In this document: positions 17,067 to 50,738 of the stretch, one piece after another | How positions within the stretch are numbered: the stretch's first letter is position 1 | Layout: every line of letters starts with the position of its first letter | Source of the DNA: Pseudomonadota bacterium | GTDB taxonomy: Bacteria; Pseudomonadota; Alphaproteobacteria; Caulobacterales; Parvularculaceae | Assembly (NCBI GenBank): GCA_039187035.1 | Contig: JBCCZS010000001.1 | Span: 2,284 to 66,283, forward strand | Length of the DNA: 64,000 nt | Direction: 5' to 3' | Position numbers and translations under genes: made by a program | The notes under the pieces: model-generated | Databases searched by the model: none | The model's input: only the letters and a program-made list of their open reading frames with translations | What the model was told of the DNA's origin: nothing

Positions 17067-17190
17067 ATGGGATCGACACCCGCGCGCTTGCGGATTGACA
17101 ACCGGTCCGCACGGCGGCTCTGGCTTGCCGCGCAAGGGCTCGCCGAGACGCCGACCGGCGCGTTCAATTCTATTCGGGAATTACGACCGC
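17067..17190 (+). pseudogene. N-terminal remnant of a YcaQ/DUF1006-like winged-helix gene
   Basis: MGSTPARLRIDNRSARRLWLAAQGLAETPTG resembles the family N-terminus (E. coli YcaQ LSLADARNLHLAAQGL). Similarity is lost where the convergent 832-aa gene ends. Confidence 0.4.
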
Positions 17191-19668: not shown

Positions 19669-19962
19669 ACCCCAGACGGACGAGCGTCCGCCTCACGATC
19701 GGATCGGTCAGGCGGTGGCCGCGACAATTTCGTTTAAGAGACTACCAGCTTAGGTGCAAAGCGGAAGGCCGGGCCCCAATTGCGGTGCGCCGGCGCCGAC
19801 GCGTTTTGTGTCAAAAGCCCTTTGCACAGTCCGCGTCCGCTCCGGCTAGCCGCAACGGCGGCGCCCCGATCGCGCGCGCGTACAACGCTCGGTTATTGAT
19901 TTTCCTCCGTATTCGGCGGACCCTCCGGTCAAGCGCGAGAAAGCGCGATGGAGGAACCAGCC

Positions 19963-21382: not shown

Positions 21383-21416
21383 GAAAAACAAAAAGACATG
21401 ATTGTTTTTTTCTGGC
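21383..21416 (+). promoter_or_regulatory. AT-rich motif copy A (AAAAAGACATGATTGTTTTTTTCTGGC)
   Basis: It shares A-run+AGAC+NN+GATTGTTTTTT+WYTGGC with 31908-31943. It lies about 190 nt upstream of the receptor ATG, within a locally AT-rich stretch. Confidence 0.4.
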
Positions 21417-23960: not shown

Positions 23961-25910
23961 ATGATCACACCCTTCGGCACAAGGATCGCCCATCGCGTCG
24001 CGGCGCTATGCGCCGGCTTACTGGCCGCGGTCTTGTCGCCGGCCGGGGTCGGTGCGGAAAAGGCGCGCGTCGGTTCCTGGTCGCAGTATGGCGGCGACGA
24101 CGCGGGCACGCGATACGCGCCGCACGACCAAATCAATCCGCAGACGATTAAGAAGCTCCGGCGGGTTTGGACGTACCGGACGGGCGAGCTGGAGCGCCGT
24201 TCGGCGGCGATGAACGTCAACAGCTCCAACGAAAACACGCCAATCGTCGCAGCCGGCTCCCTGATCGTCTGTACGCCGTTCAACCGCGTCGTCGCGCTTG
24301 ATCCGGCGACGGGCGAAGAACGCTGGACCTTCGACCCGCAGGTGCGCGACGACTTTCCGTTGCCCAATCAATATGTGTGTCGCGGCGTGGCGCAGTGGCG
24401 CGACGCCTCGGCCGACGACGGCGCCGCCTGCGCGCATCGCCTGTTCGTCGCCGCGAACGATTTGCGCGTCATCGCAATCGACGCGCATACGGGAGAACGT
24501 TGCGCCGGTTTCGGCGAAAACGGCGAGGTCCGCGTTCAAACGGTTCGGGCGCAACGAACGCCCGGCGAAATCAAATTCAACTCCGCGCCGGCGGTGGTGA
24601 ACGACGTCGTCGTCGTCGGCTCGTCAATTCTTGACAATGTGCGCACCGACGCGCCGCTCGGCACCGTACGCGCCTTTGACGCACGGACGGGCGCGCCCGC
24701 ATGGACGTTCGACGCGGTGACGCCGACTGCAGACGTCGGTGCGGCGAACGTCTGGACGGCGATGGCGACGGACGACGCGCGCGATCTCGTCTTCCTGCCG
24801 ACGTCGAGCGCGTCGCCCGACTTCTACGGCGGCGAACGCGGCGGCGACAACGAACTCGCCAACGCGATCGTCGCTGTGCGCGGCGCGACCGGCGAGCGGG
24901 TTTGGTCGCAACAACTCGTCCGACACGACGTTTGGGACTACGATTTGCCGTCTCAACCGACGCTCGTCGATTTGCGGCGCGACGGCGGCGTCGTGCCCGC
25001 GGTCGTCCAAACGACGAAGCAGGGCTTCGTTTTCATCTTTCATCGAGAGACCGGCGCGCCGATTTTTCCGCTAACGGAGGTGCCGGTTCCCGCATCGGCG
25101 GCGCTGGGCGAAGCCTTGCCGCGATCCCAACCGGCGCCGAGCCTGCCCGCGCCGCTCGTGCCGCAACGGCTGACGCCGGACATGGCGTTCGGCTTCACGC
25201 CGATCGATAAATCAGCCTGTCGACAAAAGATCGCCGATGCGCGGTCGGAAGGGCTCTTCACGCCGCCGAGCGTTGAGGGAACGATTTTCTATCCGTCGAC
25301 GGCGGGCGGCGCCAATTGGGGCGGGTCCGCGTTTGACCCGGCGCGGCGGCTTCTCTTCGTCAACACCTCGCGCGTTGCGCAACTCATCACGCTCGAACCC
25401 AAGAGCGCAGAGGACGGCGAGGCGGCGAGCGTCGTTTTGTCGGCCAAGGAAGACGTCTCCCCGCAAGACGGCGCGCCCTATCGCGTGCGCCGCGAATGGC
25501 TGTTGTCGCCGCTCGGCGCACCGTGCTCGCCGCCGCCTTGGGGCGGCCTGACGGCGATTAATCCGGATACGGGAGAAACCGTTTGGGACGCGCCGCTCGG
25601 CGACATTCGCGACCGCTTGCCGGTCCCCTTGCCGATGAAAACCAATCTCGGCACGCCCAATATCGGCGGCCCGGTCGCCACCGCAGGGGGCCTCGTCTTC
25701 ATCGCTGCGGCCCAGGACAACTACTTACGCGCTTACCGGTCGGACACCGGCGAGGAAGTCTGGCGCGACAAACTCCCCGCGGGCGGCCAGACGACGCCCA
25801 TGTCCTATGAAGTCGACGGCAAGCAATATGTCGTCATCACGTCGGGACAACATCTTTGGTTCCAAACCCCGCCGGGCGACTACGTCGTCGCCTATGCGCT
25901 GGAGGACTAG
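23961..25910 (+). CDS. PQQ-dependent dehydrogenase (glucose/quinate/shikimate-type propeller, soluble form)
   Basis: Signal peptide, then WSQYGGDDAGTRYAPHDQINPQTIKKLRRVWTYRTGE and repeated W-containing propeller motifs. There is no N-terminal multi-TM anchor. Confidence 0.85.
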   Translation: MITPFGTRIAHRVAALCAGLLAAVLSPAGVGAEKARVGSWSQYGGDDAGTRYAPHDQINPQTIKKLRRVWTYRTGELERRSAAMNVNSSNENTPIVAAGSLIVCTPFNRVVALDPATGEERWTFDPQVRDDFPLPNQYVCRGVAQWRDASADDGAACAHRLFVAANDLRVIAIDAHTGERCAGFGENGEVRVQTVRAQRTPGEIKFNSAPAVVNDVVVVGSSILDNVRTDAPLGTVRAFDARTGAPAWTFDAVTPTADVGAANVWTAMATDDARDLVFLPTSSASPDFYGGERGGDNELANAIVAVRGATGERVWSQQLVRHDVWDYDLPSQPTLVDLRRDGGVVPAVVQTTKQGFVFIFHRETGAPIFPLTEVPVPASAALGEALPRSQPAPSLPAPLVPQRLTPDMAFGFTPIDKSACRQKIADARSEGLFTPPSVEGTIFYPSTAGGANWGGSAFDPARRLLFVNTSRVAQLITLEPKSAEDGEAASVVLSAKEDVSPQDGAPYRVRREWLLSPLGAPCSPPPWGGLTAINPDTGETVWDAPLGDIRDRLPVPLPMKTNLGTPNIGGPVATAGGLVFIAAAQDNYLRAYRSDTGEEVWRDKLPAGGQTTPMSYEVDGKQYVVITSGQHLWFQTPPGDYVVAYALED

Positions 25911-25963: not shown

Positions 25964-27490
25964 TCAGTCGAGCGGTTCGACGTCGAATGCGATGCTGACG
26001 CGTTCGTCGACCGAAAACGGCGTCGTGCGGTGATAGAAAAACGACGGAAACAAAAAGAGCCGCCCTTCCGCCGGCTGAAAGAGCGCAGGCGGCGCCGCCG
26101 GATCCGTGTGGTAATGGGCGGGCGGCCGTCCGACCTCGAACCAACCGGCGGTCGGCTCGTCCGGCGTTGCAGGCGGTAATTTCGGGTAATAGACGCCGCT
26201 CAGCCAATTGGGCGCGTGAATATGCGGTTCAAGTCTGCCGCCGGGGTCCAGGATCGTCCCCCACATCGTCAGGGTCCGCCGTTCGGGAAGGCCGCTGAGA
26301 AAAAGCGCGTCGCGCTGCGGGTCGAGCGCGGCGATATAGTCGTCGACGCAACGCTCGATCCACGTCGCCAGCACGGCGAAGGGGCCGGGCGCGCCGTCGA
26401 GCAATTCGCGGGTCTGGCGGCCTTGCCGCGTCGTCAACCCCGCCGGTTCGAAGGTGAGGGACGGGTGCGCGCGAACGCTATCGGTCAGCATACGGTTGAA
26501 ATCGGCGACGGCGGTCTCGCCGGTCGCCTGCGCAAAGGCGTCCGGCGGCGCGTCGTACTGTCTGACCAGCCGGCTCGTCTCGACCAACGTCCCGAATGCG
26601 TCTGGGTCGTTCAAGACGGAGAACGCGACCGAGCGCAGCGCGAGCGCTGTCGTTTTCTCGCCTGAGGCCGCGAGCGCCGCGTCGGTCGCGTCGAGGGCCT
26701 CGCGCGCCCGGCCCGCGGCGAGAAGAGCGCCGGCGAGGTTCGCATGCGGTTCGGCGCGCTCCGGCGCCGCCGCGGCGACGCCCTCAAAAAGCGCGATCGC
26801 CTCGTCAAGGTCGCCTTGCTTCTCTAGAAGCCCCGCCAAATCGTTGCGTGCCGGCCAATAGTCCGGCTGAGTGTTTTGGACGGCGCGCAACGCTGCGATC
26901 GCGTCGCGCGTGTCGCCGGCCGCGGCGAGGCAAGCGGCGTAATTGCGCCGGACCGGCGCGGCGTCGGGGGCCAGTTCGAGCGCGCGTGCATAGGCGACAA
27001 GCGCGCCGGAAAAATCGCCCATCCGTTTACGGACGACGCCGAGGCTGTTCCACGCCATCGGGTTTTGCGGTGCGGCCGACGTCGCAGCGTCCAGCGCGGC
27101 CTCGGCGTCGCGCCAGCGACCGAGCGCGAGATAGCAATTGCCGAGATTGAGATTGACGCTTCGGTTTGCGGGGTTCAGCCGCCGGGCCTCGGCGAGCGCG
27201 GCGATCGCCTCCTCGTACGCGCCCGTTTGTTTGAGGAAGACGCCGTAATTGTTGTGAAGGTCGGCGTCGTCCGGCGCGGCCGAGAGGCCGCCCAGAAACG
27301 CCTCACGGGCCTGCGCGCTTCGCCCCGACCGGTGGCGCGCGACGCCGAGGAGCCCGAATGCGCGCCCGGATCGCACGCCCGCGCCGACGAGTTGTTCTAG
27401 GAGAACGACCGCGTCGTCGGGGCGGCCTTGCGCGATCGCCCGTGCGGCCTCCTGCAGGGCGGCGTCTCGGTCTTCGTCGTCGATCGACAA
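25964..27490 (-). CDS. TPR-repeat protein fused to a 2OG-Fe(II) oxygenase-like C-terminal domain
   Basis: About 8 TPR-like repeats (AxxxYxxALxxxP pattern), then HIHAPNWLSGVYYPKLP...LFLFPSFFYHRTTPF...ERVSIAFDV. Confidence 0.8.
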   Translation of the reverse strand: MSIDDEDRDAALQEAARAIAQGRPDDAVVLLEQLVGAGVRSGRAFGLLGVARHRSGRSAQAREAFLGGLSAAPDDADLHNNYGVFLKQTGAYEEAIAALAEARRLNPANRSVNLNLGNCYLALGRWRDAEAALDAATSAAPQNPMAWNSLGVVRKRMGDFSGALVAYARALELAPDAAPVRRNYAACLAAAGDTRDAIAALRAVQNTQPDYWPARNDLAGLLEKQGDLDEAIALFEGVAAAAPERAEPHANLAGALLAAGRAREALDATDAALAASGEKTTALALRSVAFSVLNDPDAFGTLVETSRLVRQYDAPPDAFAQATGETAVADFNRMLTDSVRAHPSLTFEPAGLTTRQGRQTRELLDGAPGPFAVLATWIERCVDDYIAALDPQRDALFLSGLPERRTLTMWGTILDPGGRLEPHIHAPNWLSGVYYPKLPPATPDEPTAGWFEVGRPPAHYHTDPAAPPALFQPAEGRLFLFPSFFYHRTTPFSVDERVSIAFDVEPLD

Positions 27491-27579: not shown

Positions 27580-27897
27580 ATGATTACGCTTATCATGCGC
27601 GTGCGGATAAAAACTGAAAAGATCGACGACTTCTCAGCGCTGATCGCGCAACTTGCGCAAGACGTTTACGCGAACGAGCCCGACTGTCTCGCGTTCGAGG
27701 TGCGCCAGAGCGAGGCGGACCCGGCGCTGTTCGTCTTTTTTGAGTGTTTCCGTTCAAAAGCCGCGCATGAAGCGCATCCGGACATGCCGTACCATAAAGC
27801 GATGTCGGAAGCCGGCTGGGCGTGCGTCGACGGCGAGCCGGAGATCGAGTTTCTAACGCCGGTCGCCGGCGCCCCGGCCCCGCTTCGCGGCGTGTAG
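27580..27897 (+). CDS. Antibiotic-biosynthesis-monooxygenase (ABM/Dabb) family protein
   Basis: About 105 aa. Typical pattern MITLIMRVRIK...FEVRQSEADPALFVFFECFRSKAAHEAH. GGGAGGA RBS. Confidence 0.75.
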   Translation: MITLIMRVRIKTEKIDDFSALIAQLAQDVYANEPDCLAFEVRQSEADPALFVFFECFRSKAAHEAHPDMPYHKAMSEAGWACVDGEPEIEFLTPVAGAPAPLRGV

Positions 27898-27902
27898 CGC
27901 GG

Positions 27903-29804
27903 TCACTCGCCGGGCGCCGTCGGCGCGTCGGCCGCTTCAAACACAAGAAGCGCGTTGCCCGGCATGCGGTCGCCGAAGAGATAGCCGGAGTTCACAAGCA
28001 CCCGCCCGTTCGCGACGACGGGGCCGGCGGATTCAATCGAGCCGCCGCGCGCCGTTTCGCCGGATACGGACGGAAAGTCGCGATTGGTGTCGAAGTCCCA
28101 AAGAAGATCGCCGGACGCTTTGTCATAGGCGCGCAAATGGCCGTCAAACGCGCCGGCGAACACGAGGTCCCCGGCGACGGTGACGGGGGCGGAATAGCCG
28201 GGATCGCACGCGGGTTTTTCCTCTTCGGCGCAGGTTAGCGGCGCCGCGGCGAACCAGCGCGTTTCTCCCGTGGCGGCGTCGAGCGCGAAGAGGCCGGGTT
28301 TGCGCTCGCCTTTGAAGCGGCCGATAAACTCCGTGTCGGCGTTCGGCGCGTAGACGGTGCGCCCGTCGCTCGCCATGCCCCAGTGGACGCCGCCGGCGAA
28401 GCCGCCGCGGCCGATCTTCTTTTTCCAAATGAGGGCGCCGTTATCGTCCGGGTCCAGCGCGAACACGTCGCCGGATTTTTGGCCGACGACGACGAGATCG
28501 CGGCCCGTCTCGTCGGTGACGAGCATGGGCGGCGCGCCGATGTCGAGGTCCGGCCCGTTTTCTTCCGGACAATTCGGTCCGCCGCCGATGAAACACGCCA
28601 TGTTCCAGGCGTCTCCGGCGATCGACTGATACGTCCAGCGCACCGCGCCCGTCTTAAGGTCGATCGCGAGCACCGAGTCGCTCGTGTCCGCCGCGGGCGA
28701 GGTGTACGCCTCGCCGGTGCCCACATAGAGAACGCCGCGTTTTTCGTCGATTGTCGGCGAGTTCCAAATCGGCGCGCCGGCCGGGTGAAAGCGGGCGGCG
28801 CCGGCGGCGTTGGTCTCGCCGGTCGGCGCCGGCGTTTGCGGGATCGAGTAGGTTTTCCAAAGGAGCGCGCCGGTCGCGACGTCGAATTTTGCGACGCCGC
28901 CGCGAAACGTGCAGCATTCATAGGCCGGGTCTGCGGCGCTCGCCCACTCGGTCGACGACAACGGCACATAAAGCGCGCCGTCGTAAAGGCGCGGCGACCC
29001 GGTCAGCGTCACGTCCGGGTGCGCGTCCGCGACGGCGCGCCATTGCAGGGCGCCGGTCCGCGCGTCGACCGCATAGACGTGCCCTTGGATGTCGCCGAAG
29101 AGCGCGAGGGGGCCGTCCGGCGTCGCCGCGACGTTGACGGCGTTGCGTACTTCCGCGTCCGCGGCGAACGTCCATCGCGCGCAGCCGCTTGCGAAATCGA
29201 GCGCGTAGACCGCGCCGCCCTGGCTGCCGACAAAGACGACGTCGCCGTAGACCGTAGGTTGGCTGCGCGCGCGGCTCGCGCCCGGATACGCGAACGCCCA
29301 TTTCAACTCCAGGCGCGCGGCGTCTTCCTTTGAGAGGCCGGCGCTCTCCGCGTCGACCGCGCGGGTGCCGGCGAGCGTCAGGCCCCACCCTTCGAATGCG
29401 GGGCGCGCGTCGGCAACGGTTCGGTCCGTGCACATCTTAACCGGTTTCGAACCGGCTGACGTCCCGCCGAGAAACGCGGCGAGCGCGGAGATTTCCTCCG
29501 ACGTCAGACCTTCGGCTTGGGTTTGCATGACGCCGCTCGTCAACGCGGCGGCGATCGCGTCGGGCCCGATGACTTGGAACATGACGGCGTGCGGCGCCTT
29601 CGGCACGCCGCCCATATGGCAAGAGGCGCATCGCTCCGCAAAGAGACCGGCGGCGTCGACGTCGCCATGGGGTGCGGCGGGCGCGGCGGCTTCCGGTTTT
29701 GTCGGAATGCTCGCGGGAGCGGCCTGCGCGATCGCTCCGGCGGCAAGGATAGCGACTGCGACGGCTGGGGCGACGGCGCGGATCATCAAGTCTATGGCGT
29801 GCAT
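27903..29804 (-). CDS. PQQ-type beta-propeller dehydrogenase with N-terminal cytochrome c domain (polyvinyl-alcohol-dehydrogenase-like architecture)
   Basis: Signal peptide, haem c site CASCHMGG, then a PQQ-like repeat propeller (GGAVYALD, GHVYAVDARTGALQW, and others). Confidence 0.85.
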   Translation of the reverse strand: MHAIDLMIRAVAPAVAVAILAAGAIAQAAPASIPTKPEAAAPAAPHGDVDAAGLFAERCASCHMGGVPKAPHAVMFQVIGPDAIAAALTSGVMQTQAEGLTSEEISALAAFLGGTSAGSKPVKMCTDRTVADARPAFEGWGLTLAGTRAVDAESAGLSKEDAARLELKWAFAYPGASRARSQPTVYGDVVFVGSQGGAVYALDFASGCARWTFAADAEVRNAVNVAATPDGPLALFGDIQGHVYAVDARTGALQWRAVADAHPDVTLTGSPRLYDGALYVPLSSTEWASAADPAYECCTFRGGVAKFDVATGALLWKTYSIPQTPAPTGETNAAGAARFHPAGAPIWNSPTIDEKRGVLYVGTGEAYTSPAADTSDSVLAIDLKTGAVRWTYQSIAGDAWNMACFIGGGPNCPEENGPDLDIGAPPMLVTDETGRDLVVVGQKSGDVFALDPDDNGALIWKKKIGRGGFAGGVHWGMASDGRTVYAPNADTEFIGRFKGERKPGLFALDAATGETRWFAAAPLTCAEEEKPACDPGYSAPVTVAGDLVFAGAFDGHLRAYDKASGDLLWDFDTNRDFPSVSGETARGGSIESAGPVVANGRVLVNSGYLFGDRMPGNALLVFEAADAPTAPGE

Positions 29805-29831
29805 CTTGGTGCCTATCAGGGGCGGCGCAAT

Positions 29832-30848
29832 TCAGGCGGCGTAGCCCGCCGCGCGCCGCGCGGCCGCGACGATGTCGTCTTTCGACGGAACGTAGGCGGC
29901 CTCGAGCGCGGGCGAGGCCGGCACGGGGGTGTGCGGCGCGGTGACTTTCTCGACCGGCGCTCTGAGCGAGGAAAACGCCTCGGCCGCCGCGAGCCCCGCT
30001 ATTTCCGATGCGAAGGAACAAATCGGCGTCGCTTCGTCGACGACCACGAGGCGACCGGTCTTCTCAATCGAATCGAGAATGCTGTCGGCGTCGAACGGAG
30101 AGAGCGACCGTGGATCGATCACTTCGGCCGAGACGCCCTCGGCCTCCAGCGCCTGCGCGGCTTCGTCGGCGACGAGCGCCATGCGGCCGATCCCGACGAT
30201 GGTGACGTCGGCGCCCTCGCGGACGATCCGTGCCTTGCCGAACGGCACGACGTAATCGCCGTCCGGCACGTCGCCTTCGTCGCCGAGCAACATCTTGTGT
30301 TCGCAGAAGATCACGGGGTCTTCATCGCGGATCGCCTGGATCAACATGCCCTTCGCGTCGTACGGCGTCGTGGGCAAGACGACTTTCAGGCCGGGAATAT
30401 GCGCGAAGATCGGATAGCAGGCCTGCGAGTGCTGCGGCCCTGCGCCGATCCCGGCGCCGACCATGGTGCGGATGACCATGGGCGCGCCGCGTTGATTGCC
30501 GAACATGTACCGAAACTTCGCGGCCTGATTATAAATCTGGTCGAAGCAAACGCCGAAGAAATCCGCGAACATGAGTTCGGCGACGGGGCGCAGTCCGGTC
30601 AAGGCGGCGCCGGCCGCGGCGCCCATAATGGCGGATTCCGAAATCGGCGTGTCGATGACGCGCCCGGCGCCGAATTCCGTATGCAGACCGGCGGTGAGCC
30701 CCATCACGCCGCCGGCTTTTTCGTCGTCGCCGGCGGTCCCGCCGCGCCCGCCCGCGACGTCCTCGCCGATGACGACGACGTTCGGGTCGCGGCGCATTTC
30801 GGTGCGCAGCGCGTCCGTGATCGCTTCGCGTAAGGTGATCTTCGGCAT
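29832..30848 (-). CDS. 2-oxoacid/acetoin dehydrogenase E1 component beta subunit
   Basis: MPKITLREAITDALRTEMRRDPNVVVIGEDV..., with transketolase-like pyrimidine-binding and C-terminal domains. Confidence 0.9.
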   Translation of the reverse strand: MPKITLREAITDALRTEMRRDPNVVVIGEDVAGGRGGTAGDDEKAGGVMGLTAGLHTEFGAGRVIDTPISESAIMGAAAGAALTGLRPVAELMFADFFGVCFDQIYNQAAKFRYMFGNQRGAPMVIRTMVGAGIGAGPQHSQACYPIFAHIPGLKVVLPTTPYDAKGMLIQAIRDEDPVIFCEHKMLLGDEGDVPDGDYVVPFGKARIVREGADVTIVGIGRMALVADEAAQALEAEGVSAEVIDPRSLSPFDADSILDSIEKTGRLVVVDEATPICSFASEIAGLAAAEAFSSLRAPVEKVTAPHTPVPASPALEAAYVPSKDDIVAAARRAAGYAA

Positions 30849-30860
30849 GGCCCGCTCCCT

Positions 30861-31832
30861 TTACGCGTACTCGGCGTAGACGTGATCGTGAAGCGCCGAC
30901 GGGTCGGGCGTCGGCGCGGCTTTGGCGAACGCGACCGCCTTGTCGATTTCTTCAGCGACTTCGGCGTCGATATCGTCAAAGGTCTGCGCGTCAAGCAGGC
31001 CGGCCTCGAGCACCTTCGCTTTAAAGATCGTAAGCGGATCTTTTTCGACCTGGAGGCCGGCGATTTCTTCTTTGTTGCGATAGGCTTGCGGGTCCCCTTC
31101 GTAATGGCCGTACCAGCGATAGGCGACGCACTCGATGCTCGAGGGACCCTCGCCGGCGCGCGCCCGCTCGACCGCGTCGCGCACCGCGTCGTGCACGGTG
31201 AAGAAGTCCGAACCGTCGATGCGCACGCCGGGCATGCCGAAGCCGGCCGCGCGCGTCGCAATATCTTTCGCGCCGCAATGATAATCGACGCCGGTGAATT
31301 CGGCGTAGCCGTTGTTCTCGTAGAGGAAAATGACGGGAAGCTTGAGGACCACCGCCAAATTCATCGCTTCAAAAACGGTTCCCTGGTTCGAGGCCCCGTC
31401 GCCGATGAACGCGACCGCGACCCGGTCGGTCCCGCGGGTTTTCGCCGAGAGCGCAGCGCCGACCGCGAGCGGCGGCGAGCCGCCGACGATCGCGTTCGCG
31501 CCGAGCATGCCTTTCGATAGGTCCGCGATATGCATCGATCCGCCCTTGCCGCCGCACAGGCCGTCGGCGCGGCAGTAAATCTCCAGCGTCATGTCGCGGA
31601 TGTCGCACCCTTTGGCGATGCAGTGGCCGTGCCCGCGGTGGGTCGAGCCGATATAATCCTCGTCGCTGAGGTGCGCGCAAACGCCGGCTGCTATGGCTTC
31701 TTGCCCGCAATAGAGATGAATGAAGCCGGGCATCGTGCCGGTCATGAACTCTTTGCGCATGCGTTCGTCGAAGTCCCGCATACGGCGCATTTTGAGGTAC
31801 GCGGTACGCAGATCGTCGCGACTTAGCTGCAT
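30861..31832 (-). CDS. TPP-dependent 2-oxoacid/acetoin dehydrogenase E1 component alpha subunit
   Basis: GFIHLYCGQEAIAAGV and the TPP motif GDGASNQGTVFEAMNLA...LPVIFLYENNGY. Confidence 0.9.
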   Translation of the reverse strand: MQLSRDDLRTAYLKMRRMRDFDERMRKEFMTGTMPGFIHLYCGQEAIAAGVCAHLSDEDYIGSTHRGHGHCIAKGCDIRDMTLEIYCRADGLCGGKGGSMHIADLSKGMLGANAIVGGSPPLAVGAALSAKTRGTDRVAVAFIGDGASNQGTVFEAMNLAVVLKLPVIFLYENNGYAEFTGVDYHCGAKDIATRAAGFGMPGVRIDGSDFFTVHDAVRDAVERARAGEGPSSIECVAYRWYGHYEGDPQAYRNKEEIAGLQVEKDPLTIFKAKVLEAGLLDAQTFDDIDAEVAEEIDKAVAFAKAAPTPDPSALHDHVYAEYA

Positions 31833-31907
31833 TGCAGCATCCTCCCGTTGTCGCCCGCTTGTCCGGTTTCTTGATTGCGAGCCTATCCAATCGGCCGACG
31901 GCAGGGC

Positions 31908-31943
31908 AATTAAAAAAACAGACGCGATTGTTTTTTATTGGCG
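31908..31943 (+). promoter_or_regulatory. AT-rich motif copy B (AAAAAAACAGACGCGATTGTTTTTTATTGGC)
   Basis: It sits in the 155-bp divergent region between the E1 alpha and SDR genes and shares its core with 21383-21416. It contains the inverted arms AAAAAACA / TGTTTTTT. Confidence 0.4.
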
Positions 31944-31987
31944 CCCGGCGGGTCGGCGGGGTAGCGTTCAAGGCGGGAGGACTGCGG

Positions 31988-32767
31988 ATGAGCCGACGCT
32001 TTGACGGAAAAGCGGCGTTCGTAACGGGTGCGGCCAGCGGCATCGGCGCGGCGACGGCGCGCAAGCTCCATGACGAAGGCGCGTGCGTCTTTGCAGCGGA
32101 CGTCGCCTTCGAGAACGCGGAATGGTCCGCCGCCGACGACCGGTTTTTCCGCGCCCGCCTCGACGTTACGGACGGCGCGGCGTGCGCGTCGGCGATCCGC
32201 GGCGCGGCCGAACGCGCCGGCCGGCTCGACGTCGCGGTTCTCAACGCCGGGATCGGGTATTCCAAGCCGTTCGAAGAGACGACTGCTGACGATTGGCGCA
32301 GTTTGTACGCCGTAAACGTCGACGGCGTTTACCACTGCTGTCAGGCCGTCATCGCGGTGATGAAGGAAACGGCGCCGGACCGCTCCTGGGACGACGCCGC
32401 GTCGATCGTGATCACGTCGTCGGTCGTCGGGCAGGTCGGGACGGCGGACGCCAGCGCGTATGCGAGCACCAAAGGCGCGGTGCGCATCCTCGCGAAATCG
32501 CTCGGTCTTTATTGCGCCCAGCGCGACTACCGCATCCGCGTCAACTCCGTGCACCCGGGCGTCATCGACACGCCGCTCCTTTGGGCCGACTTGGAGCGCA
32601 CCGGCGCGGCGCAAGACGCGTTTAAGGCGGTCAACGCCGCCCAGCCGATCGGGCGGATCGGCCGGCCGGAAGACATTGCGAACGGCGTCGCGTATCTGGC
32701 GTCCGACGACGCCTCTTTCGTGACCGGATCCGAACTCGTTATCGACGGGGGGTATACGGCTTTATGA
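31988..32767 (+). CDS. Short-chain dehydrogenase/reductase (SDR)
   Basis: GKAAFVTGAASGIGAATA, NAGI, and YASTKGAVRILAKS (YxxxK). Confidence 0.9.
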   Translation: MSRRFDGKAAFVTGAASGIGAATARKLHDEGACVFAADVAFENAEWSAADDRFFRARLDVTDGAACASAIRGAAERAGRLDVAVLNAGIGYSKPFEETTADDWRSLYAVNVDGVYHCCQAVIAVMKETAPDRSWDDAASIVITSSVVGQVGTADASAYASTKGAVRILAKSLGLYCAQRDYRIRVNSVHPGVIDTPLLWADLERTGAAQDAFKAVNAAQPIGRIGRPEDIANGVAYLASDDASFVTGSELVIDGGYTAL

Positions 32768-33558
32768 CGCAAGAGGCCGCCGCCTCGACGAACCTTGAGG
32801 GACGCGTCGCTCTTATTACGGGCGGCGCGTCCGGGATTGGCCAGGCGACGGCGCGCGCCTTCGCCGCAGCCGGCGCGCGGGTCGCGATCCTCGACAACGC
32901 CGATGACGCCGCGATCGCCGCGGAAGTCGACGCGCTGCGCGCCGACGGCGCCGACGCGTTCGGCGTGCGGGCGGACATATCGGACGCGGACGAGGCGGCG
33001 CGCGCCGTCGGCGCGGTCGCGGACGCGCTCGGCCCGGTCGACGCGCTCGTCAACAACGCCGGCGTTTGGGAACCGAACCCGGTGCCGGACAGCCCGTTGG
33101 CGTTGTTCGAGCGCCACATCGACGTGAACGTAAAGGGCACGTTTTTCGTCACGCACGCCTGCCTGCCGTCGATGTTGGAAAAAGGCGCCGGCACGATCGT
33201 CAACGTTTCTTCCGTCAGCGGCGTCGCCGGCCGCGCCGGCGACAGCGCCTATTCGGCCTCGAAAGCCGCGGTCGTGATGCTGACGAAAACCCTCGCCGCG
33301 GAACTCGGCGGGCGGGGCGTACGGATCAACTGTCTCGCGCCGGGGGCCGTCGCGACGCCCCTGACCGCCGCGCTACGCACGCCCGAGGGCGAGGCCGCCG
33401 TCGCCGAATTGATGGCGACGCACCCGAGCCCCAACGGCCGCTTCTTCATGCCGCCGGAGGACATGGCCTCGATCATTGTGTTTTTGTCGAGCGCGCCGTC
33501 GAAAGCGATCCACGGCGCAACGATCGTCGCCGACGAAGGCATCACGGCGACGATGTGA
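32764..33558 (+). CDS. Short-chain dehydrogenase/reductase (SDR)
   Basis: GRVALITGGASGIGQATA, NNAGV, and YSASKAAVVMLTKT. ATGA overlap with the upstream SDR. Confidence 0.9.
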   Translation: MTQEAAASTNLEGRVALITGGASGIGQATARAFAAAGARVAILDNADDAAIAAEVDALRADGADAFGVRADISDADEAARAVGAVADALGPVDALVNNAGVWEPNPVPDSPLALFERHIDVNVKGTFFVTHACLPSMLEKGAGTIVNVSSVSGVAGRAGDSAYSASKAAVVMLTKTLAAELGGRGVRINCLAPGAVATPLTAALRTPEGEAAVAELMATHPSPNGRFFMPPEDMASIIVFLSSAPSKAIHGATIVADEGITATM

Positions 33559-33625
33559 TCGCCCGCGCCGCCGGACCCTAACGCCCGCAAGTCCCCGGCG
33601 CCCGCAAGACCAAAGGGAGGAAACG

Positions 33626-34075
33626 ATGGCCGAACCGCTAACCGACCCGTCCAGCCTGGGCGACATCATCATCAATACGAACACGGCGCCGTGGCACGAT
33701 CTCGGCGAAGGAACGACGTTTCAGCTTCTGCGCTTCAGCGAGGTGACCGGCGACTGGGCGCTCTATGTGCGCATGGCGCCGGGCGCGACATTCGCGCCGC
33801 ACAAACACCTGAGCGACGGCGAATACTTCGTCACGAAAGGCGAACTCGTCTACGATGTCGGCTCGGCTCCAGCGGGAACGTACGGTTACGAACCGATCGG
33901 CTCGATCCACCATGAAGCGCACTGCACGGTCGAAACTGAGCTCTTGTTTTTGGGGCACGGACCCGTCGCCTTCACCGCCGAGGACGGATCAATCCGCTTT
34001 ATTCTCGACTATGAATTCCTTAAAGGGATCGCCGACCAAAAAGTCGACGCCGACATTTCCGGCGAGGCGTACTAG
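33626..34075 (+). CDS. Cupin-domain protein (ChrR-like cupin)
   Basis: AGGGAGG RBS. PGATFAPHKHLSDGEYFVTKGEL...GYEPIGSIHHEAH cupin metal motifs. Confidence 0.7.
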   Translation: MAEPLTDPSSLGDIIINTNTAPWHDLGEGTTFQLLRFSEVTGDWALYVRMAPGATFAPHKHLSDGEYFVTKGELVYDVGSAPAGTYGYEPIGSIHHEAHCTVETELLFLGHGPVAFTAEDGSIRFILDYEFLKGIADQKVDADISGEAY

Positions 34076-34383: not shown

Positions 34384-36531
34384 TTACAAAGCGACGTCGA
34401 CGGAGATGCCGTAGACGCGCCGCGGGCCGAGGGTCGCGCAGCAATCGAAATCGATTACGCCGTCGGCGTCGAAATCGAACGTATCCTGATAGACGAAGTA
34501 GTCCTCGTTGAAGGCGTTGTCGGCGAAGAGCATCACCATCAAGCCGTCGCCGCGCCACCCGCCGCGAAAGTTCGCGACGATATAGTCGCCCACGGGATCG
34601 GGCGGAAAGTTCTGGATGTCGCGGGAGAGATAGGCGTCGACATATTTCGCGTCGCCCCCGACGAAGAAGCCCGACGGCAAGACGTAGTTAAAGCCGCCGG
34701 CGATCGTCCAATTGGGCGCCTCCGGGAAGTCGGAGCCGGTGAGATCAAATTCCGTTGTGACGAATTCGTCAAACTCGGTCTCGACATAGCCGATCGAGGC
34801 GAAGGCGGACAATTCGGCCGTAATGTCGCCGCGCATCTCCAATTCAAAGCCGTAAAGGCTCGATTGCCCGGCGTTCGCCGTGATGACCGACTGAAAGTCG
34901 CCCGGTACGAGCTGCAATTCGACCTGCTGGTTCTGCCAGTCCGTATAGAAAGCGTTGGCGTTTACCGTCGCTTGGCCGTCGAAGAGTTCGCTGCGGAATG
35001 ACACTTCATACGTCCACGTTGTTTCTGCATCAAACGACGTAGCCGCCTCGGTCACAGGGTTGACGAAAACGCCGCCGGCGCGGAAGCCGCGCGCGGCCGT
35101 AAAGCCGATCGTGCGGTCCGGGAGGAATTCCCAGACGATCGAGCCCTTGGGAAGAAACTCGACGGAATCATCCGTTCCGCCGCCGATCGGAACGGCGGCG
35201 AGGGCGGGGTTGAAGGCGCCGGACGCCGCAAAGAGTTCCACGTCTTGCTCTTCATACTGAACGCGGCCGCCGGCGATAATGTCGACGGTCGGGAGGATCG
35301 GCCAGGTCGCCTCGCCGAATATCGCGACGTTGGTCGTGTCGATTTCTGCGGCCGTGGCGTTCGTGCTGCCGCCGCCGAAGAAGGTCGAGCGGCGGTTGAT
35401 GTCGCGCGTGTCCTCGGTCAGGTAGTAAAGGCCGGCGACCCACGAGACCGCATCTTCGCCCTTGTCGAAGTTCAGCAAGAATTCCTGCGTGATCAAACGT
35501 TGGTCGATCTCGCCGTTCGAGGTGAAGACCTCACCGGGCGTGCCTTCGTTGATCGAGGGTTTGTTGGTTTCCGAATAGGACGCCGTCGTCAGTGAGCGGA
35601 ACGACAGCGCGTCGGTCAGATCTTTCGTGACGTCGAACGAGAAGTTATGCGCCTCGCCTTCGCGATTATCTTGGAAGAAGGGTAGGCTGGCGTTCAGATC
35701 GCCGCGACGCGCGCTGTAGGGAAAGCCGAGCCCCGGGCCGGCGATATCGTCATAGTGCGGAGAATCGGCCGAGTAAGAATAAGTGAGCAGGCCGCTCCAC
35801 CCGGGAAGGGCGTCGGGCTCGATCAGAAGTTTGCCGCGGATCTGATAATATTCGTCGTCGATGAAGTTGTCGAAACGATCAAAGCCGCTATAGCCCTGAT
35901 AGTTGAGATCGCTCTCTTCGGTCTGGAATTCGGCGGCGATCCGAAACGCGATTTGGTCGTCGAGGATCGGCCCGCCGAACGCGACGCCCGCTTGCCAGGT
36001 TTCGAGCGTGCCGACCGTCAGGTTGGCTTGCGCTTCCCATTCGTAGGTCGGGTTGTTGGTGGTGACGTAAATGGCGCCGGCGAGCGCGGCGCGTCCTGAA
36101 AGCGTCGATTGCGGGCCGCGATAGACCTCAATTTGCGACACGTCCCAGGCGCCGCGCGCGCCGCGCCTCGCGCCTTGGACCGTTTGCTGGGCGCCGTCGA
36201 TGTAAAGCGCCGCGAGCGGGCTGCCGCCCGGCGTCAGCCCTTCTGAGTTGACGCCGCGAATGATGAAGCCCGCGTCCGACCAGTCGGCGTCGAGAATGTT
36301 CGCCGAGACGCGGAAGGCGTCACGAAAGCTCTGGATACCGAGTTCGCGAATTTGCTCTTCGGAAACGACCGCGACGCTCGCTTGCGTATCTTGCAAGGTG
36401 CGGCCCCGTTTCTCGCCGAAGACGATAATTTCGTCGTCCTCGATTTCCTCGACCGGTTGCGCGAGCGCGGCGCCGGCCGAGCACAGAACGGCGAGCGCGC
36501 TCGCCCCTAATAGAATCCCTTTGAACGTCAT
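34384..36531 (-). CDS. TonB-dependent receptor
   Basis: Signal MTFKGILLGASALAVLCSAGAALAQ, plug motifs (IEVYRGPQSTLSGRAALAGAIYV), and a beta-barrel. Confidence 0.9.
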   Translation of the reverse strand: MTFKGILLGASALAVLCSAGAALAQPVEEIEDDEIIVFGEKRGRTLQDTQASVAVVSEEQIRELGIQSFRDAFRVSANILDADWSDAGFIIRGVNSEGLTPGGSPLAALYIDGAQQTVQGARRGARGAWDVSQIEVYRGPQSTLSGRAALAGAIYVTTNNPTYEWEAQANLTVGTLETWQAGVAFGGPILDDQIAFRIAAEFQTEESDLNYQGYSGFDRFDNFIDDEYYQIRGKLLIEPDALPGWSGLLTYSYSADSPHYDDIAGPGLGFPYSARRGDLNASLPFFQDNREGEAHNFSFDVTKDLTDALSFRSLTTASYSETNKPSINEGTPGEVFTSNGEIDQRLITQEFLLNFDKGEDAVSWVAGLYYLTEDTRDINRRSTFFGGGSTNATAAEIDTTNVAIFGEATWPILPTVDIIAGGRVQYEEQDVELFAASGAFNPALAAVPIGGGTDDSVEFLPKGSIVWEFLPDRTIGFTAARGFRAGGVFVNPVTEAATSFDAETTWTYEVSFRSELFDGQATVNANAFYTDWQNQQVELQLVPGDFQSVITANAGQSSLYGFELEMRGDITAELSAFASIGYVETEFDEFVTTEFDLTGSDFPEAPNWTIAGGFNYVLPSGFFVGGDAKYVDAYLSRDIQNFPPDPVGDYIVANFRGGWRGDGLMVMLFADNAFNEDYFVYQDTFDFDADGVIDFDCCATLGPRRVYGISVDVAL

Positions 36532-37037: not shown

Positions 37038-37670
37038 ATGAGCGAGGCGCGACGCTTAAAGCGCGGTGGCGGCGCCGCGGCGGACGCCGGCGCCCCGCCG
37101 CAGGCCGAGGCCCCAGCGATCGGGGCCCCAGCCATTGACGACCACGGCGGGGCCGCAGACCGCAACCGGGTCACCGCCCTTTACAGCGATTACGCCGCCC
37201 AACTGTCGGCGACCCTGCGCAGCATTTATGGCGACGGGCCGCCCGATCCCGACGACGTCGCCCAACAGGCGTTCCAAAATGTAATGGAGCGCGGCGACAT
37301 CGGATCGGTCAAAAACCTCAAAGCGTTCGTTTGGCGCACGGCCCGCAACCTGATCTTCAAAGCGCACCGAACCCGCGAAACGCGGGCGCGATACGATTAT
37401 GAGATCGATCAGCTGTTTTTTCCGCTCCGGACCGACGAACTGACCCCTGAAAGGATCATAGTAGCAAGAGAGCAATTGCAGGCGATCAACCGGGCGTTGC
37501 TGGAGATGCCGCCCAAGCGACGGCGCGCCTTCCTCCTGCACCGGTTGCACGGGCTGACGGTGTCCGACGTCGCCCGAAGGCTAGGCGTGAGCCGGTCGAC
37601 GGCGGACGAGCACATCGTCCGCGCCGCGACCGAAATCAACAGGCTCCTCCTCGATATGACGGAGACATGA
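37038..37670 (+). CDS. ECF (FecI-type) RNA polymerase sigma factor
   Basis: Sigma-70 region 2 (DDVAQQAFQNVME...) and region 4 (LEMPPKRRRAFLLHRLHGLTVSDVARRLGVSRSTADEHI). The exact start is uncertain. Confidence 0.85.
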   Translation: MSEARRLKRGGGAAADAGAPPQAEAPAIGAPAIDDHGGAADRNRVTALYSDYAAQLSATLRSIYGDGPPDPDDVAQQAFQNVMERGDIGSVKNLKAFVWRTARNLIFKAHRTRETRARYDYEIDQLFFPLRTDELTPERIIVAREQLQAINRALLEMPPKRRRAFLLHRLHGLTVSDVARRLGVSRSTADEHIVRAATEINRLLLDMTET

Positions 37671-38737
37671 GCATGCCGGATACATCCAGCCGTTTCGACG
37701 CGGACGACGTTCTCTACGTCGCCCACAAATGGCGGTCGCTGCTCAACAGCCCCGATGCGACGGACGCGGATCGCGCGCGTTTCGAGGCGTGGATTGACGC
37801 CGATCCGCGGCACGCGGACGTCTTCGGCCAAGCCGTCACCTTTTGGGAGGCGTTCGGACACGTATCGCAAAGCGATCTCGACCCGGAAACGCTGAAGCCG
37901 GTCGTTCGCGAACGGATCGCGCACTTTGTCGGGGCCGTGGCGGCGGTCGCCGCGACGCCGGCGGTACGCGTCGCGAGGGCGGCCGCGGTCGGCCTCGTAA
38001 TCGTCGGCGCCGTCGTGCTCAACGGCGTCGGCGCGCCGCGAATGGCGGCGGCGCCCGTCGTCGCGGCCTATTCAACGGCGAAAGGCGCAGTGAAGTCGGT
38101 CGCCCTCAACGACGGGTCGACGATCACCATGGGGCCTGAGACCAGCCTCGAGGCGACCTATTCCGCTAACGCGAGACGCATTCGGCTCACGACGGGCGCG
38201 GCGTATTTCGACGTGGCGCGCGACGCGGCGCGGCCGTTCTCGGTGGAAGCCGGCGACTTGGAGGTGGTGGCGCTGGGCACCGCGTTCGACGTGCGCGGCG
38301 GCGACCGGGTCTGGCGCGTCGCGGTGGCGGAAGGCGCGGTCGACGTCGCGTATCCGCCGGCCACCGATGGGGCGACCGACGAGACGCTCGGCGCGCAGGC
38401 GACGTCGAGAAACCTGTCCGCAGGGGAACAGATCGCCGCGACGCGCACGCGCGGCTTGTCCGAGGTGAGCCCCATCGCGCCCGTCGACGTCGGGGCCTGG
38501 CGATCCGGCCGACTATTCTACGACGGCGCGTCGCTCCGCGAGGTGGTGTCGGACCTCAACCGATACTCCGAGACGCCCATAATGATCGACGACGGCGGCG
38601 AGGGAATCGCCGACCTTCGCTTACGCGGCGGTTTCCGCGCCGACGATATCGACGGCTTGCTCAACGCGACGGCGTTCATTCACCCCGTCACGATCGATCG
38701 CAGCGATCCCGACGTCGTCGTGATCCGCGCGCGCTGA
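37667..38737 (+). CDS. FecR-family anti-sigma / transmembrane sensor
   Basis: ATGA overlap with the sigma gene. N-terminal RFEAWIDADPRHA, a single TM segment, and a FecR domain (VALGTAFDV...). Confidence 0.85.
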   Translation: MSMPDTSSRFDADDVLYVAHKWRSLLNSPDATDADRARFEAWIDADPRHADVFGQAVTFWEAFGHVSQSDLDPETLKPVVRERIAHFVGAVAAVAATPAVRVARAAAVGLVIVGAVVLNGVGAPRMAAAPVVAAYSTAKGAVKSVALNDGSTITMGPETSLEATYSANARRIRLTTGAAYFDVARDAARPFSVEAGDLEVVALGTAFDVRGGDRVWRVAVAEGAVDVAYPPATDGATDETLGAQATSRNLSAGEQIAATRTRGLSEVSPIAPVDVGAWRSGRLFYDGASLREVVSDLNRYSETPIMIDDGGEGIADLRLRGGFRADDIDGLLNATAFIHPVTIDRSDPDVVVIRAR

Positions 38738-38872
38738 ACCGACGGGGCGGCGGCCCGCCGTCGATTGCAGAATTCATCCCCGCATCGCCCGGTAAATCCG
38801 ATCGGTCAGGAGTCATAGGATCGGAGAAGCGAACGCGAGCCGTTCGCGGGGCTTAGCGTCTAGGGGTATGAA

Positions 38873-41915: not shown

Positions 41916-42082
41916 CGACGACTGCGGATTATCGGCGGAGACGGAATAAGCAGCGTTCAACGCGCCGCTCGCCGCCGATGCCCCTGCGCGAGGCTTCACG
42001 ATCGGCCCATGCGTCGTATAGCCTTCGGGCGAATTTCGGATCCGCGTCGCGCGCTCGGGCGAACAACAGTAAAGCTGCACCC

Positions 42083-50686: not shown

Positions 50687-50738
50687 ACCTCATGATCTTG
50701 ACGACACGGCGCCGTCGGATCTCCGGCCGGAGACTCCC

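Follow-up and report, generated by a model that had tools for sequence, protein, structure and literature searches.

The closest described relatives of the genes considered here are the acetoin dehydrogenase (Aco) system, the pyruvate dehydrogenase (PDH) and branched-chain 2-oxoacid dehydrogenase complexes, the polyvinyl alcohol (PVA) dehydrogenases (PVADHs), the type II quinohaemoprotein alcohol dehydrogenases (ADHs) and the cupin Dke1. Butanediol dehydrogenase genes adjoin aco operons. In the PDH E1 of G. stearothermophilus, His128 of the beta subunit belongs to the substrate site, together with a hydrophobic nest (PMC2663715). Dke1 from Acinetobacter johnsonii splits a beta-diketone into a carboxylate and a 2-oxoaldehyde; at an Fe(II) site formed by three histidines it uses O2 to turn acetylacetone into acetate and methylglyoxal, and roles have been assigned to its residues His62, His64, His104 and Glu98 (PMC4019311). 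The characterised pva operon of Sphingopyxis sp. 113P3 lies on the chromosome (PMC4611681). Here we describe a gene island from a Pseudomonadota bacterium (Parvularculaceae; assembly GCA_039187035.1, contig JBCCZS010000001.1, positions 2,284 to 66,283), which we analysed within a stretch of 64,000 nucleotides, hereafter the window. The island combines an E1 alpha/beta pair dependent on thiamine diphosphate (ThDP), a periplasmic quinohaemoprotein of the pyrroloquinoline quinone (PQQ) type, two short-chain dehydrogenases/reductases (SDRs) and a Dke1-like cupin. We give an even chance to the reading that this conserved island encodes a pathway of oxidation and C-C bond cleavage fed by TonB-dependent receptors (TBDRs), in which an AcoAB-type E1 is served by an E2 and an E3 supplied in trans. 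Every part is of a known kind, namely an AcoAB-like E1, a PVADH-type quinohaemoprotein, a Dke1-like cupin, SDRs and TBDRs. Not described in the searchable literature are the combination of these parts, the placing of a periplasmic dehydrogenase gene between E1 and E2 genes, and the modular acceptor; literature searches on PVADH with acetoin and TBDR, Halieaceae genomics, Chol11 bile-salt proteomics and Dke1 clusters found no description of the cluster, their coverage excluding most subscription journals.

The core of the island comprises two divergent gene groups:

30861-31832, minus strand: E1 alpha, AcoA-like, the subunit that binds the diphosphate of ThDP (PF00676, 286 bits).
29832-30848, minus strand: E1 beta, with the ThDP pyrimidine-binding domain (Transket_pyr, PF02779, 162 bits) and the C-terminal domain (Transketolase_C, PF02780, 134 bits).
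27903-29804, minus strand: periplasmic quinohaemoprotein (cPQQ) of 633 aa, with a signal peptide, an N-terminal haem c domain and a PQQ-type propeller.
31988-32767, plus strand: SDR1, cytoplasmic, 259 aa (adh_short).
32764-33558, plus strand: SDR2, 264 aa (Pfam and NCBIfam profile scans).
33626-34075, plus strand: Dke1-like cupin, cytoplasmic, 149 aa (PF12973, 126 bits), a putative Fe(II) dioxygenase cleaving beside a carbonyl group.

The three minus-strand genes look like an operon. As read from the sequence, 12 nt separate E1 alpha from E1 beta and 27 nt separate E1 beta from the quinohaemoprotein gene, each of the three genes is preceded by a ribosome-binding site, and neither gap holds a terminator-like site, a kind of site whose frequency across the stretch does not exceed that in shuffles. 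Open reading frames (ORFs) and domains confirm the gene layout and gaps given in the initial annotation. That annotation had also placed two translationally coupled SDRs and a cupin across the divergent region, which measures 155 bp between E1 alpha and SDR1 (31833-31987). The coupling stood, the start of SDR2 overlapping the stop of SDR1 in an ATGA (32764-32767), but two of the starts needed correcting: SDR1 begins at ATG 31988 and not at TTG 31832, the same 259-aa protein being called on an independent contig, and the cupin begins at ATG 33626, behind a AGGGAGGA ribosome-binding site, and not at 33476. Among NCBIfam models SDR1 fits the (R)-specific alcohol dehydrogenase and meso-2,3-butanediol dehydrogenase models best, below the cut-off in all cases, and both SDR1 and SDR2 fall below every equivalog cut-off.

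No partner for the E1 could be located nearby. The window holds this one E1 pair and no second E1, and Pfam scans of all its sizeable ORFs revealed no Biotin_lipoyl, 2-oxoacid_dh or Pyr_redox_dim domain. Six-frame tblastn of the 64 kb returned nothing at E <= 1 with two standard E2s, the AcoC-type E2 of an acoABC operon (locus L004; related loci are numbered with the prefix L) and E. coli LpdA, the last of these queries being adequate for family detection; with two free lipoyl-domain proteins it returned nothing at E <= 10. The Pfam scans and the tblastn search together uphold the earlier statement that these 64 kb encode neither a lipoyl E2 nor an E3.

The alpha subunit of the E1 contains the ThDP-Mg motif, GDGASNQG...ENNGY, as read from the sequence. 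It reaches 328 bits against the PDH model TIGR03182, below the cut-off of 393.85, and the E1 alpha of L004, to which it is 67% identical, reaches 321 bits against the same model; the E2 of L004 passes the AcoC model NF011457 (452 bits vs a cut-off of 307), and many E1 alpha homologues are labelled acetoin:DCPIP oxidoreductase. The beta subunit scores 328 bits against NF006667, above the cut-off of 321. The best solved matches of the two subunits are the human PDH E1 alpha (217 bits) and the G. stearothermophilus E1 beta (276 bits). When aligned to chain B of 1W85 and 3DUF, E1 beta retains the equivalent of Glu59 (in DTPISE), which we take to be the ThDP-activating residue, and its His140 corresponds to His128, presumably a contact of lipoamide. 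An 11-residue insertion rich in Gly and Asp, GGRGGTAGDDEKA, sets E1 beta apart from the G. stearothermophilus PDH E1 beta at residues ~32-46 (window 30711-30755). We also considered whether the active site could tell 2-oxoacid from acyloin specificity; His128 of the beta subunit and the hydrophobic nest (PMC2663715) are non-discriminating in this respect. Among the placements that the initial annotation had suggested checking (AcoAB, PDH or branched-chain), the AcoAB assignment holds insofar as E1 alpha shares 67% identity with L004, but the protein belongs to a sister clade of its own and scores below the PDH cut-off. By sequence comparison, then, the window E1 is AcoAB-like but not a member of the AcoC-linked clade.

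The quinohaemoprotein has a haem site formed by C59-x-x-C62-H63 with Met93, followed by an eight-bladed PQQ-type propeller. This N-terminal-haem architecture had been likened to that of PVADHs, a likeness borne out by the signal peptide, the CxxCH motif and the propeller, and by the label 'polyvinyl alcohol dehydrogenase (cytochrome)' that JGI attaches to close homologues. Both CxxCH and a vicinal pair, Cys297-Cys298, are invariant in 20 homologues. An AlphaFold model (20 homologues, pLDDT 80.6) most closely matches PDB structures of alcohol dehydrogenases of the quinohaemoprotein and PQQ kinds, with 1kv9 at E 3e-26 and BamB ranking behind them. Pfam PQQ models fit the sequence, but the score against the methanol/ethanol family model TIGR03075 is 116 bits, with a cut-off of 480. 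Also invariant in the 20 homologues is D398-A-W-N401 (window 28594-28605), whose Asn401 aligns with Asp308 of 1KB0, which we take to be the catalytic base of quinohaemoprotein ADH. The protein is 36-38% identical to a PVADH-like plasmid gene product of Sphingopyxis sp. 113P3, encoded next to a c-type cytochrome gene and reading DDNYID in the region of Asn401; because the pva operon of this strain is chromosomal and the compared gene is plasmid-borne, this figure is not an identity to the characterised PVADH. Pfam scans of the island detected neither an oxidised-PVA hydrolase gene nor a soluble cytochrome c gene.

A second candidate for C-C bond cleavage, missed by the initial annotation, is the cupin. 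Its best characterised relative in the PDB is Dke1 (3BAL), detected with E 2e-12 from the single sequence and 4e-15 from a profile, at 34% identity over 101 columns. The anti-sigma factor ChrR, namesake of the Pfam family of the cupin, is a more distant match (E 7e-8). The equivalents of His62, His64, His104 and Glu98 of Dke1 are invariant in the 16 cluster cupins, the position of Tyr70, which in Dke1 belongs with Arg80 and Thr107 to the hydrophilic gate and second shell, is Tyr or Phe in all 16, and none of the 16 has a signal peptide.

To ask how far this arrangement extends beyond the window, the window proteins and E2s were run by tblastn against the best 80 quinohaemoprotein loci. Homologues are abundant: those of E1 alpha run into the thousands at 63-76% identity, those of the quinohaemoprotein exceed 4000, and a relative of the latter is encoded in 528 species genomes. 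An E1 alpha/beta pair lies within reach of the quinohaemoprotein gene in 46 of the best 80 loci. Forty loci are well flanked, with at least 6 kb on both sides, and they divide evenly into 20 that carry a window-type E1 and 20 that do not. PQQ2, a second PQQ dehydrogenase, is present in 15/20 E1-type vs 1/20 E1-less loci, a TBDR in 18/20 vs 3/20, and an M24 hydrolase (orthologues 39-59% identical) in 12/20 vs 0/20. The cupin and the ABM protein each occur in 7/20 E1-type loci and in none of the 20 E1-less loci, the ABM gene usually standing just upstream of PQQ2. In the nearest relatives, with E1 alpha 76% and 72% identical, the order is PQQ2, E1 alpha, E1 beta, quinohaemoprotein, TBDR, with the same short gaps. 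E1 and quinohaemoprotein genes adjoin each other in Alphaproteobacteria as well as in Gammaproteobacteria, and two distinct lineages of E1 take part; carriers include Halieaceae, Luminiphilus, Steroidobacteraceae, Hellea, the PS1 clade and sphingomonads, and the cluster is widespread in metagenome-assembled genomes (MAGs) from open water, lakes and soil. Conservation over so many genomes puts the arrangement far beyond chance. The union of a cytoplasmic E1 and a periplasmic quinohaemoprotein in one operon, which had struck the initial annotation as unusual, is accordingly real and strongly conserved.

The other island genes accompany E1 across these relatives, and on this ground we take the functional unit in the window to extend from the M24 gene (19948) to a second TBDR gene (36531), some 16.6 kb. 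The genes outside the core are:

19948-21228, plus strand: M24 hydrolase of the creatinase/prolidase fold, cytoplasmic (Pfam Peptidase_M24 and Creatinase_N).
21601-23879, plus strand: TBDR_L, a TonB-dependent receptor with a signal peptide, plug and beta-barrel; the true start is ATG 21601.
23961-25910, plus strand: PQQ2, second periplasmic PQQ dehydrogenase, of the glucose/quinate/shikimate type without a membrane anchor (PF01011, 732 bits).
25964-27490, minus strand: protein with TPR and 2OG-Fe(II)_Oxy_5 domains (Pfam), divergent from the ABM gene, start codon uncertain.
27580-27897, plus strand: ABM-fold protein of 105 aa (PF03992), convergent with the quinohaemoprotein gene; start and ribosome-binding site read.
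34384-36531, minus strand: TBDR_R, a second TonB-dependent receptor with plug, beta-barrel and a signal-peptide-like N terminus; the end of the island.

The neighbours listed in the initial annotation (a TBDR, here two, a second PQQ dehydrogenase, an ABM protein and a TPR-2OG protein) are therefore all present. Signal peptides are predicted for both PQQ enzymes and the TBDRs, and for none of E1, the SDRs, the cupin, the M24 protein and the ABM protein. The N terminus of PQQ2 resembles a signal peptide; the protein scores 658 bits against TIGR03074, below the cut-off of 833, in a match that begins at profile position 150. The M24 protein gives weak matches to prolidases and aminopeptidases, and alignment to prolidase places E, D, H, D and E at the positions that we take to be metal ligands, vs D, D, H, E and E in prolidase. 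A role of the TBDRs as PQQ importers was considered and rejected, as they score 28-32 bits against the PqqU model, whose cut-off is 1200.

Two further gene contexts were noted among the related loci. A cytochrome P450 gene, without an orthologue in the window, occurs in 24 of them (for example L038:11778-13064); it is regular in the gammaproteobacterial versions, where it usually stands just after the quinohaemoprotein or E2 gene, and the proteins are 55-86% identical among clusters. Elsewhere the quinohaemoprotein, 61-69% identical to that of the window, is found without an E1, a SnoaL_4 gene overlapping its start and a flavin monooxygenase gene (FMO/BVMO-like) lying near (L088:9534-11824, L089:9525-11818, L027, L028, L032, L036, L037, L041, L042 and L051). 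This second context suggests a route from secondary alcohol to ketone to ester.

Two copies of an operator-like palindrome were found in the window:

21390-21409, no strand assigned: site A, AAAAAGACATGATTGTTTTT, ~190 nt upstream of the TBDR start and ahead of the TBDR-PQQ2 genes.
31916-31935, no strand assigned: site B, AAACAGACGCGATTGTTTTT, inside the 155-bp divergent region.

Site B has perfect 8-bp arms, AAAAAACA-N8-TGTTTTTT, at 31913-31936, and the 20-mer AAAMAGACRYGATTGTTTTT taken from it has exactly 2 matches in the 64 kb, sites A and B, with 0.01 expected. Related loci have palindromes of the same family, whose consensus AAACA[AG]TCATGA[CT]TGTTT yields 32 sites at <=3 mismatches, all of them intergenic (shuffles, ~0.1), most lying in the divergent region between TBDR and quinohaemoprotein genes or upstream of the M24-E1 operon. 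With such a palindrome ahead of two of its transcription units, the island appears to form one regulon. In one Hellea species (L013) the motif derived from the window recurs without mismatch, 92 nt ahead of an SDR gene that, by synteny with two other Hellea loci, heads an SDR-SDR-E1'-E1'-E2 operon, which is a weak hint that this E2-bearing operon may belong to the same regulon. The sphingomonad clusters have TetR genes at their flanks, which makes a TetR-family protein the first candidate for the operator-binding regulator. A sigma-54 promoter ahead of E1 alpha, such as serves the AcoR-regulated aco operons, was sought and rejected on the unfit spacing of the candidate GG/GC elements, and a sigma-70 scan of the divergent region returned nothing.

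Among the related loci, an E2 gene is present in 13/20 well-flanked E1-type loci. The order E1 alpha, E1 beta, quinohaemoprotein, E2 is found in 13 loci, mostly of Halieaceae and Luminiphilus, with the last two genes 3-62 nt apart; Luminiphilus syltensis and Pseudohaliea rubra have the order E1 alpha, E1 beta, cupin, E2, quinohaemoprotein. These cluster E2s look catalytically complete: the lysine for the lipoyl group, the DHRVVDG active site and the domain that binds E3 are all there. They score below every equivalog cut-off for PDH and 2-oxoglutarate dehydrogenase and are of the 2-oxoacid_dh acyltransferase type, not AcoC. As for E3, none was detected in 98 loci (1.6 Mb), and its absence from the window is uninformative because no cluster among them has one.

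The sphingomonad clusters, which include plasmid-borne versions, are the closest to the window in gene content. They comprise a TBDR gene, a TPR-2OG gene and a run of ABM, SDR, SDR, cupin, M24, E1 alpha, E1 beta and lipoyl protein genes, followed in two cases by a PQQ dehydrogenase gene. The carriers are Sphingobium sp. RAC03 (L093, pBSY17_1), Croceicoccus marinus (L094) and a contig with the Chol11 cupin (L098), and all three loci share the divergent TPR-2OG/ABM pair of the window. Right after E1 beta each encodes a free lipoyl protein of 79-80 aa (L093:15799-16038, L094:15829-16068, L098:13804-14046) with an EAAK lipoyl-lysine motif, in a cluster without an acyltransferase domain. For an E1 heterotetramer to be paired with a lipoyl carrier that stands alone is already unusual. 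Overall, TBDR, ABM, SDR2, cupin, M24 and PQQ2 are 43-63% identical between window and sphingomonads (TBDR 56%, M24 55-56%, SDR2 59%, ABM 43-60%). Identity is 38% for TPR-2OG and 36-37% for SDR1, and it reaches just 38-47% for E1 alpha and beta, the sphingomonad E1 being a second E1 lineage that also stands beside a quinohaemoprotein in some Pseudomonadales.

In a neighbour-joining tree, computed without support values from the concatenated E1 subunits, the quinohaemoprotein-linked E1s fall into one clade. The acoABC operon of L004 falls outside this clade, as do the second E1-E2 sets of the same genomes (Hellea L011 and L014; L053). Within it the E2-less members are scattered and form no specialised branch. 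The window E1 is sister to that of Hellea, where an E2 lies 8 kb away, and this pair is sister to Luminiphilus/Pseudohaliea, where the E2 is in the operon. We looked for a mark of lost E2 binding in E1 beta: in the C-terminal region of this subunit E2-linked and E2-less loci are alike, and the position of G. stearothermophilus Glu285, which we take to be a contact of the E2-binding domain, was discarded as a signature, being equally variable in both sets and hence uninformative. An aldehyde dehydrogenase as a regular substitute for E2 was likewise rejected, since it stands beside E1 in L009 alone. Because most relatives carry an E2 in the operon, the E2 of the window has probably moved or been lost rather than been made unnecessary. 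More generally, it is concluded from these comparisons that lipoyl-dependent chemistry is the ancestral mode and probably the current one, the acceptor gene having left the locus or been lost on several occasions. For the window, the lipoyl acceptor is most likely supplied from elsewhere, like E3, because it is not encoded within the 64 kb.

Taken together, these genes could act in the following way. A TonB-dependent receptor would bring an oxygenated organic compound into the periplasm, where the haem-PQQ dehydrogenase and PQQ2 would oxidise hydroxyl groups, the electrons going to the respiratory chain. The two SDRs may complete the oxidation in the cytoplasm, giving dicarbonyl or hydroxyketone groups. 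The Dke1-like cupin would then use O2 to cleave a C-C bond beside a carbonyl, and the AcoAB-type E1 with its ThDP would cleave the 2-oxo or alpha-hydroxyketone fragment, the acyl group passing to a lipoyl group and on to acyl-CoA. The M24 hydrolase and the ABM protein would serve further steps. The two cleavage steps could be linked chemically: a Dke1-type reaction gives a 2-oxoaldehyde, which as its hydrate is similar to a 2-oxoacid and to an acyloin alike and might, by this reasoning, serve as the E1 substrate. A catabolic role on a diol, polyol or acyloin-type compound, as put forward in the initial annotation, is still the most plausible class. Specific substrates were considered, namely dimethylsulfoniopropionate (DMSP; suggested by lyases of the cupin and M24 families), haem (suggested by the ABM fold), bile salts, PVA and mycosporine- or gadusol-type cyclohexenones; they have family resemblance alone in their favour, and none is proposed. 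In its more ambitious form, that of an undescribed and widespread pathway in which an imported, polyol-like natural product undergoes periplasmic oxidation followed by Dke1-like and AcoAB-like cleavage, with a modular acceptor and here an E1 without a dedicated E2, the proposal is a tentative one that we rate as unlikely.

Several observations weigh against this pathway with its acceptor in trans. The order of its steps and its substrate are inference only, and the island itself holds no gene for an inner-membrane transporter or for a regulator. For this genome no E2 or lipoyl protein was seen within the 64-kb window, and 7/20 well-flanked E1-type loci have no E2 within 10 kb; the closest relatives of the window are E2-less too. 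The second E1 lineage, where it stands beside a quinohaemoprotein in some Pseudomonadales, also lacks an E2 and is once (L009) followed by an aldehyde dehydrogenase. E1 enzymes are usually specific for their own lipoyl domain, and the borrowing of an E2 is therefore not trivial. The tree in which the E2-less loci appear scattered is the neighbour-joining tree already mentioned, with its nodes lacking support values. In the 16 cluster cupins the second shell of Dke1 is altered, Arg80 being replaced by Asp or Glu and Thr107 by Ala. In the quinohaemoprotein, finally, an invariant Asn occupies the position of the catalytic Asp of quinohaemoprotein ADH, in a model whose loop 401-408 has a pLDDT <50.

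Some of these points bear on whether the E1 needs a lipoyl acceptor at all. The initial annotation had favoured an E2-independent E1 that performs the C-C cleavage, and such an enzyme could act as a ThDP lyase giving aldehydes, or could use another electron acceptor, with SDRs or aldehyde dehydrogenases processing the products. The 64 kb without E2, lipoyl domain or E3 would fit this, and so would the E2-less order E1 alpha, E1 beta, quinohaemoprotein that the closest relatives and 7 of the 20 well-flanked loci share. The sphingomonads, with an acceptor cut down to a bare lipoyl domain without acyltransferase, point the same way, as does the second E1 lineage beside a quinohaemoprotein without E2, next to which L009 has its aldehyde dehydrogenase. 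The claim is nevertheless weakened by the relatives taken as a whole: E2 is found in 13/20 loci and a free lipoyl protein in the sphingomonads, the E2-less loci do not make up a separate E1 clade and their sister lineages have an E2 in the operon, no sequence signature splits E2-less from E2-linked E1 beta, and the histidine of the substrate and lipoamide site is kept. In Hellea, moreover, the E2 operon lies 8 kb away and in one species is preceded by the operator motif. To our knowledge no natural E1 alpha/beta heterotetramer free of E2 has been found. We consider an E2-independent E1 unlikely. Chance juxtaposition of unrelated E1 and quinohaemoprotein genes, named in the initial annotation as the outcome that would overturn its reading, has in its favour that the two proteins work in different compartments. 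It fails on conservation, with the adjacency recurring in Alpha- and Gammaproteobacteria and in two E1 lineages (46 of the best 80 loci), on the gaps of 12 and 27 nt, and on the operator motif shared by the units, and its probability is close to negligible.

Two known pathways could also claim the locus. It might be an ordinary acetoin/2,3-butanediol locus, with AcoAB, butanediol and acetoin SDRs, periplasmic oxidation of butanediol by the PQQ enzymes and AcoC/AcoL encoded elsewhere; the 67% identity of E1 alpha to that of an acoABC operon, the acetoin:DCPIP oxidoreductase label on many homologues and the matches of SDR1 and SDR2, below cut-off, to the meso-2,3-butanediol dehydrogenase model all lean this way. 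We nonetheless hold it to be improbable, for the quinohaemoprotein-linked E1s form a clade of their own apart from the AcoC-linked pair, the cluster E2s are of the standard acyltransferase type and not AcoC, and a four-carbon volatile needs no TBDR, M24 hydrolase, P450, Dke1-like cupin or ABM protein. Much less probable again is a locus for the degradation of PVA or another synthetic polymer, in which the quinohaemoprotein would be a true PVADH and the other genes would handle oxidised PVA fragments. Such a role would agree with the N-terminal haem and PQQ architecture and the PVADH label on homologues, with the 36-38% identity to the PVADH-like plasmid gene of Sphingopyxis sp. 113P3, and with the chemistry of oxidised PVA, which a cupin of the beta-diketone-cleaving type would suit. 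PVA chains are cut in the periplasm, however, and the cupin is cytoplasmic; the island has no oxidised-PVA hydrolase. The compared plasmid gene, moreover, does not encode the characterised enzyme, the pva operon being chromosomal (PMC4611681), and the occurrence of the cluster in MAGs from open water, lakes and soil favours a natural substrate.

If the pathway of TBDR-fed oxidation and C-C cleavage is real, a large set of genes whose present annotation is "pyruvate dehydrogenase E1", "PQQ-binding beta-propeller repeat protein", "anti-sigma factor ChrR" and "M24 peptidase" would belong to one pathway, and this single pathway would serve the use of one carbon source by abundant aquatic and soil Proteobacteria. 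An E1 family whose acceptor gene may encode a full E2 or a free lipoyl domain, or be missing altogether, would also constitute a natural series for the dependence of E1 on E2, a matter otherwise difficult to study. The pathway is directly testable, because Luminiphilus syltensis NOR5-1B, Pseudohaliea rubra DSM 19751, Seongchinamella unica GH4-78, Sphingobium sp. RAC03, Croceicoccus marinus E4A9 and Sphingobium sp. Chol11 are carriers in culture, and the conserved operator offers a way to the regulator.

Beyond the island, the window contains other genes worth recording. Directly adjoining it, at 37038-41449, are genes for an ECF sigma factor, a FecR-like anti-sigma factor and an STN-domain TonB-dependent transducer; this cell-surface signalling set could also control the island. 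An FMO-like flavoprotein (41978-43150) and an SBF-family transporter (43138-44172) are encoded beyond it. On the other side, an 832-aa ORF on the minus strand (17170-19668) has a coding-like GC content at third codon positions (GC3) and no Pfam match, and a 485-aa ORF on the plus strand (4054-5511) has at most a marginal phosphodiesterase match. A 117-aa ORF on the plus strand (2156-2509) resembles a sulfotransferase over its C-terminal half alone, and may thus be what remains of a gene; in an alphaproteobacterial relative a complete sulfotransferase gene (L064:6689-7603) stands directly upstream of E1 alpha. The surroundings of the island are rich in genes for peptide and amine catabolism (10946-12181, 14644-15867, 5646-7292, 48746-54430, 54719-57782 and 62086-63687), among them a second M24 peptidase gene, those for a flavin amine oxidase and an aldehyde dehydrogenase, and those for an ABC transporter of the Opp/Dpp type, peptidases of families S13 and M28 and a Na/alanine symporter. 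At least 5 TonB-dependent receptors are encoded in the window as a whole.

Set against the described systems, the island borrows from each and coincides with none. It shares with the acetoin dehydrogenase system a ThDP-dependent E1 of the heterotetramer type, with 67% identity in E1 alpha, and adjoining SDR genes; unlike that system, the window lacks AcoC and AcoL, the place of AcoC being taken in its relatives by a standard E2 or a free lipoyl domain. Aco operons do not have partners such as TBDR, M24, cupin, ABM and P450. A quinohaemoprotein gene is embedded in the window-type operons. With the PDH and branched-chain 2-oxoacid complexes the window E1 has its fold and ThDP machinery in common, but its alpha subunit falls below the PDH cut-off, no E2 or E3 is encoded in the window, and its gene context is one of catabolism, not of central metabolism.

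The quinohaemoprotein agrees with PVADH in being periplasmic and in carrying a haem c domain before the PQQ propeller, with CxxCH and a vicinal Cys-Cys as in the plasmid paralogue of strain 113P3; compared with the pva operon, the island has no oxidised-PVA hydrolase, and its partners E1, cupin and SDRs are cytoplasmic. Type II quinohaemoprotein ADHs (ADH IIB, 1KV9) likewise combine an eight-bladed PQQ propeller with one haem c domain, but in these the propeller comes first, whereas the haem of the window protein is N-terminal, identity is 16-20%, and an Asn stands at the position of the catalytic Asp. The cupin differs from Dke1 in an identity of 34% over ~100 residues and in the replacement of Arg80 and Thr107 in the cluster cupins, and yet Dke1 is its closest characterised relative of solved structure, with the metal histidines and Glu98 kept.

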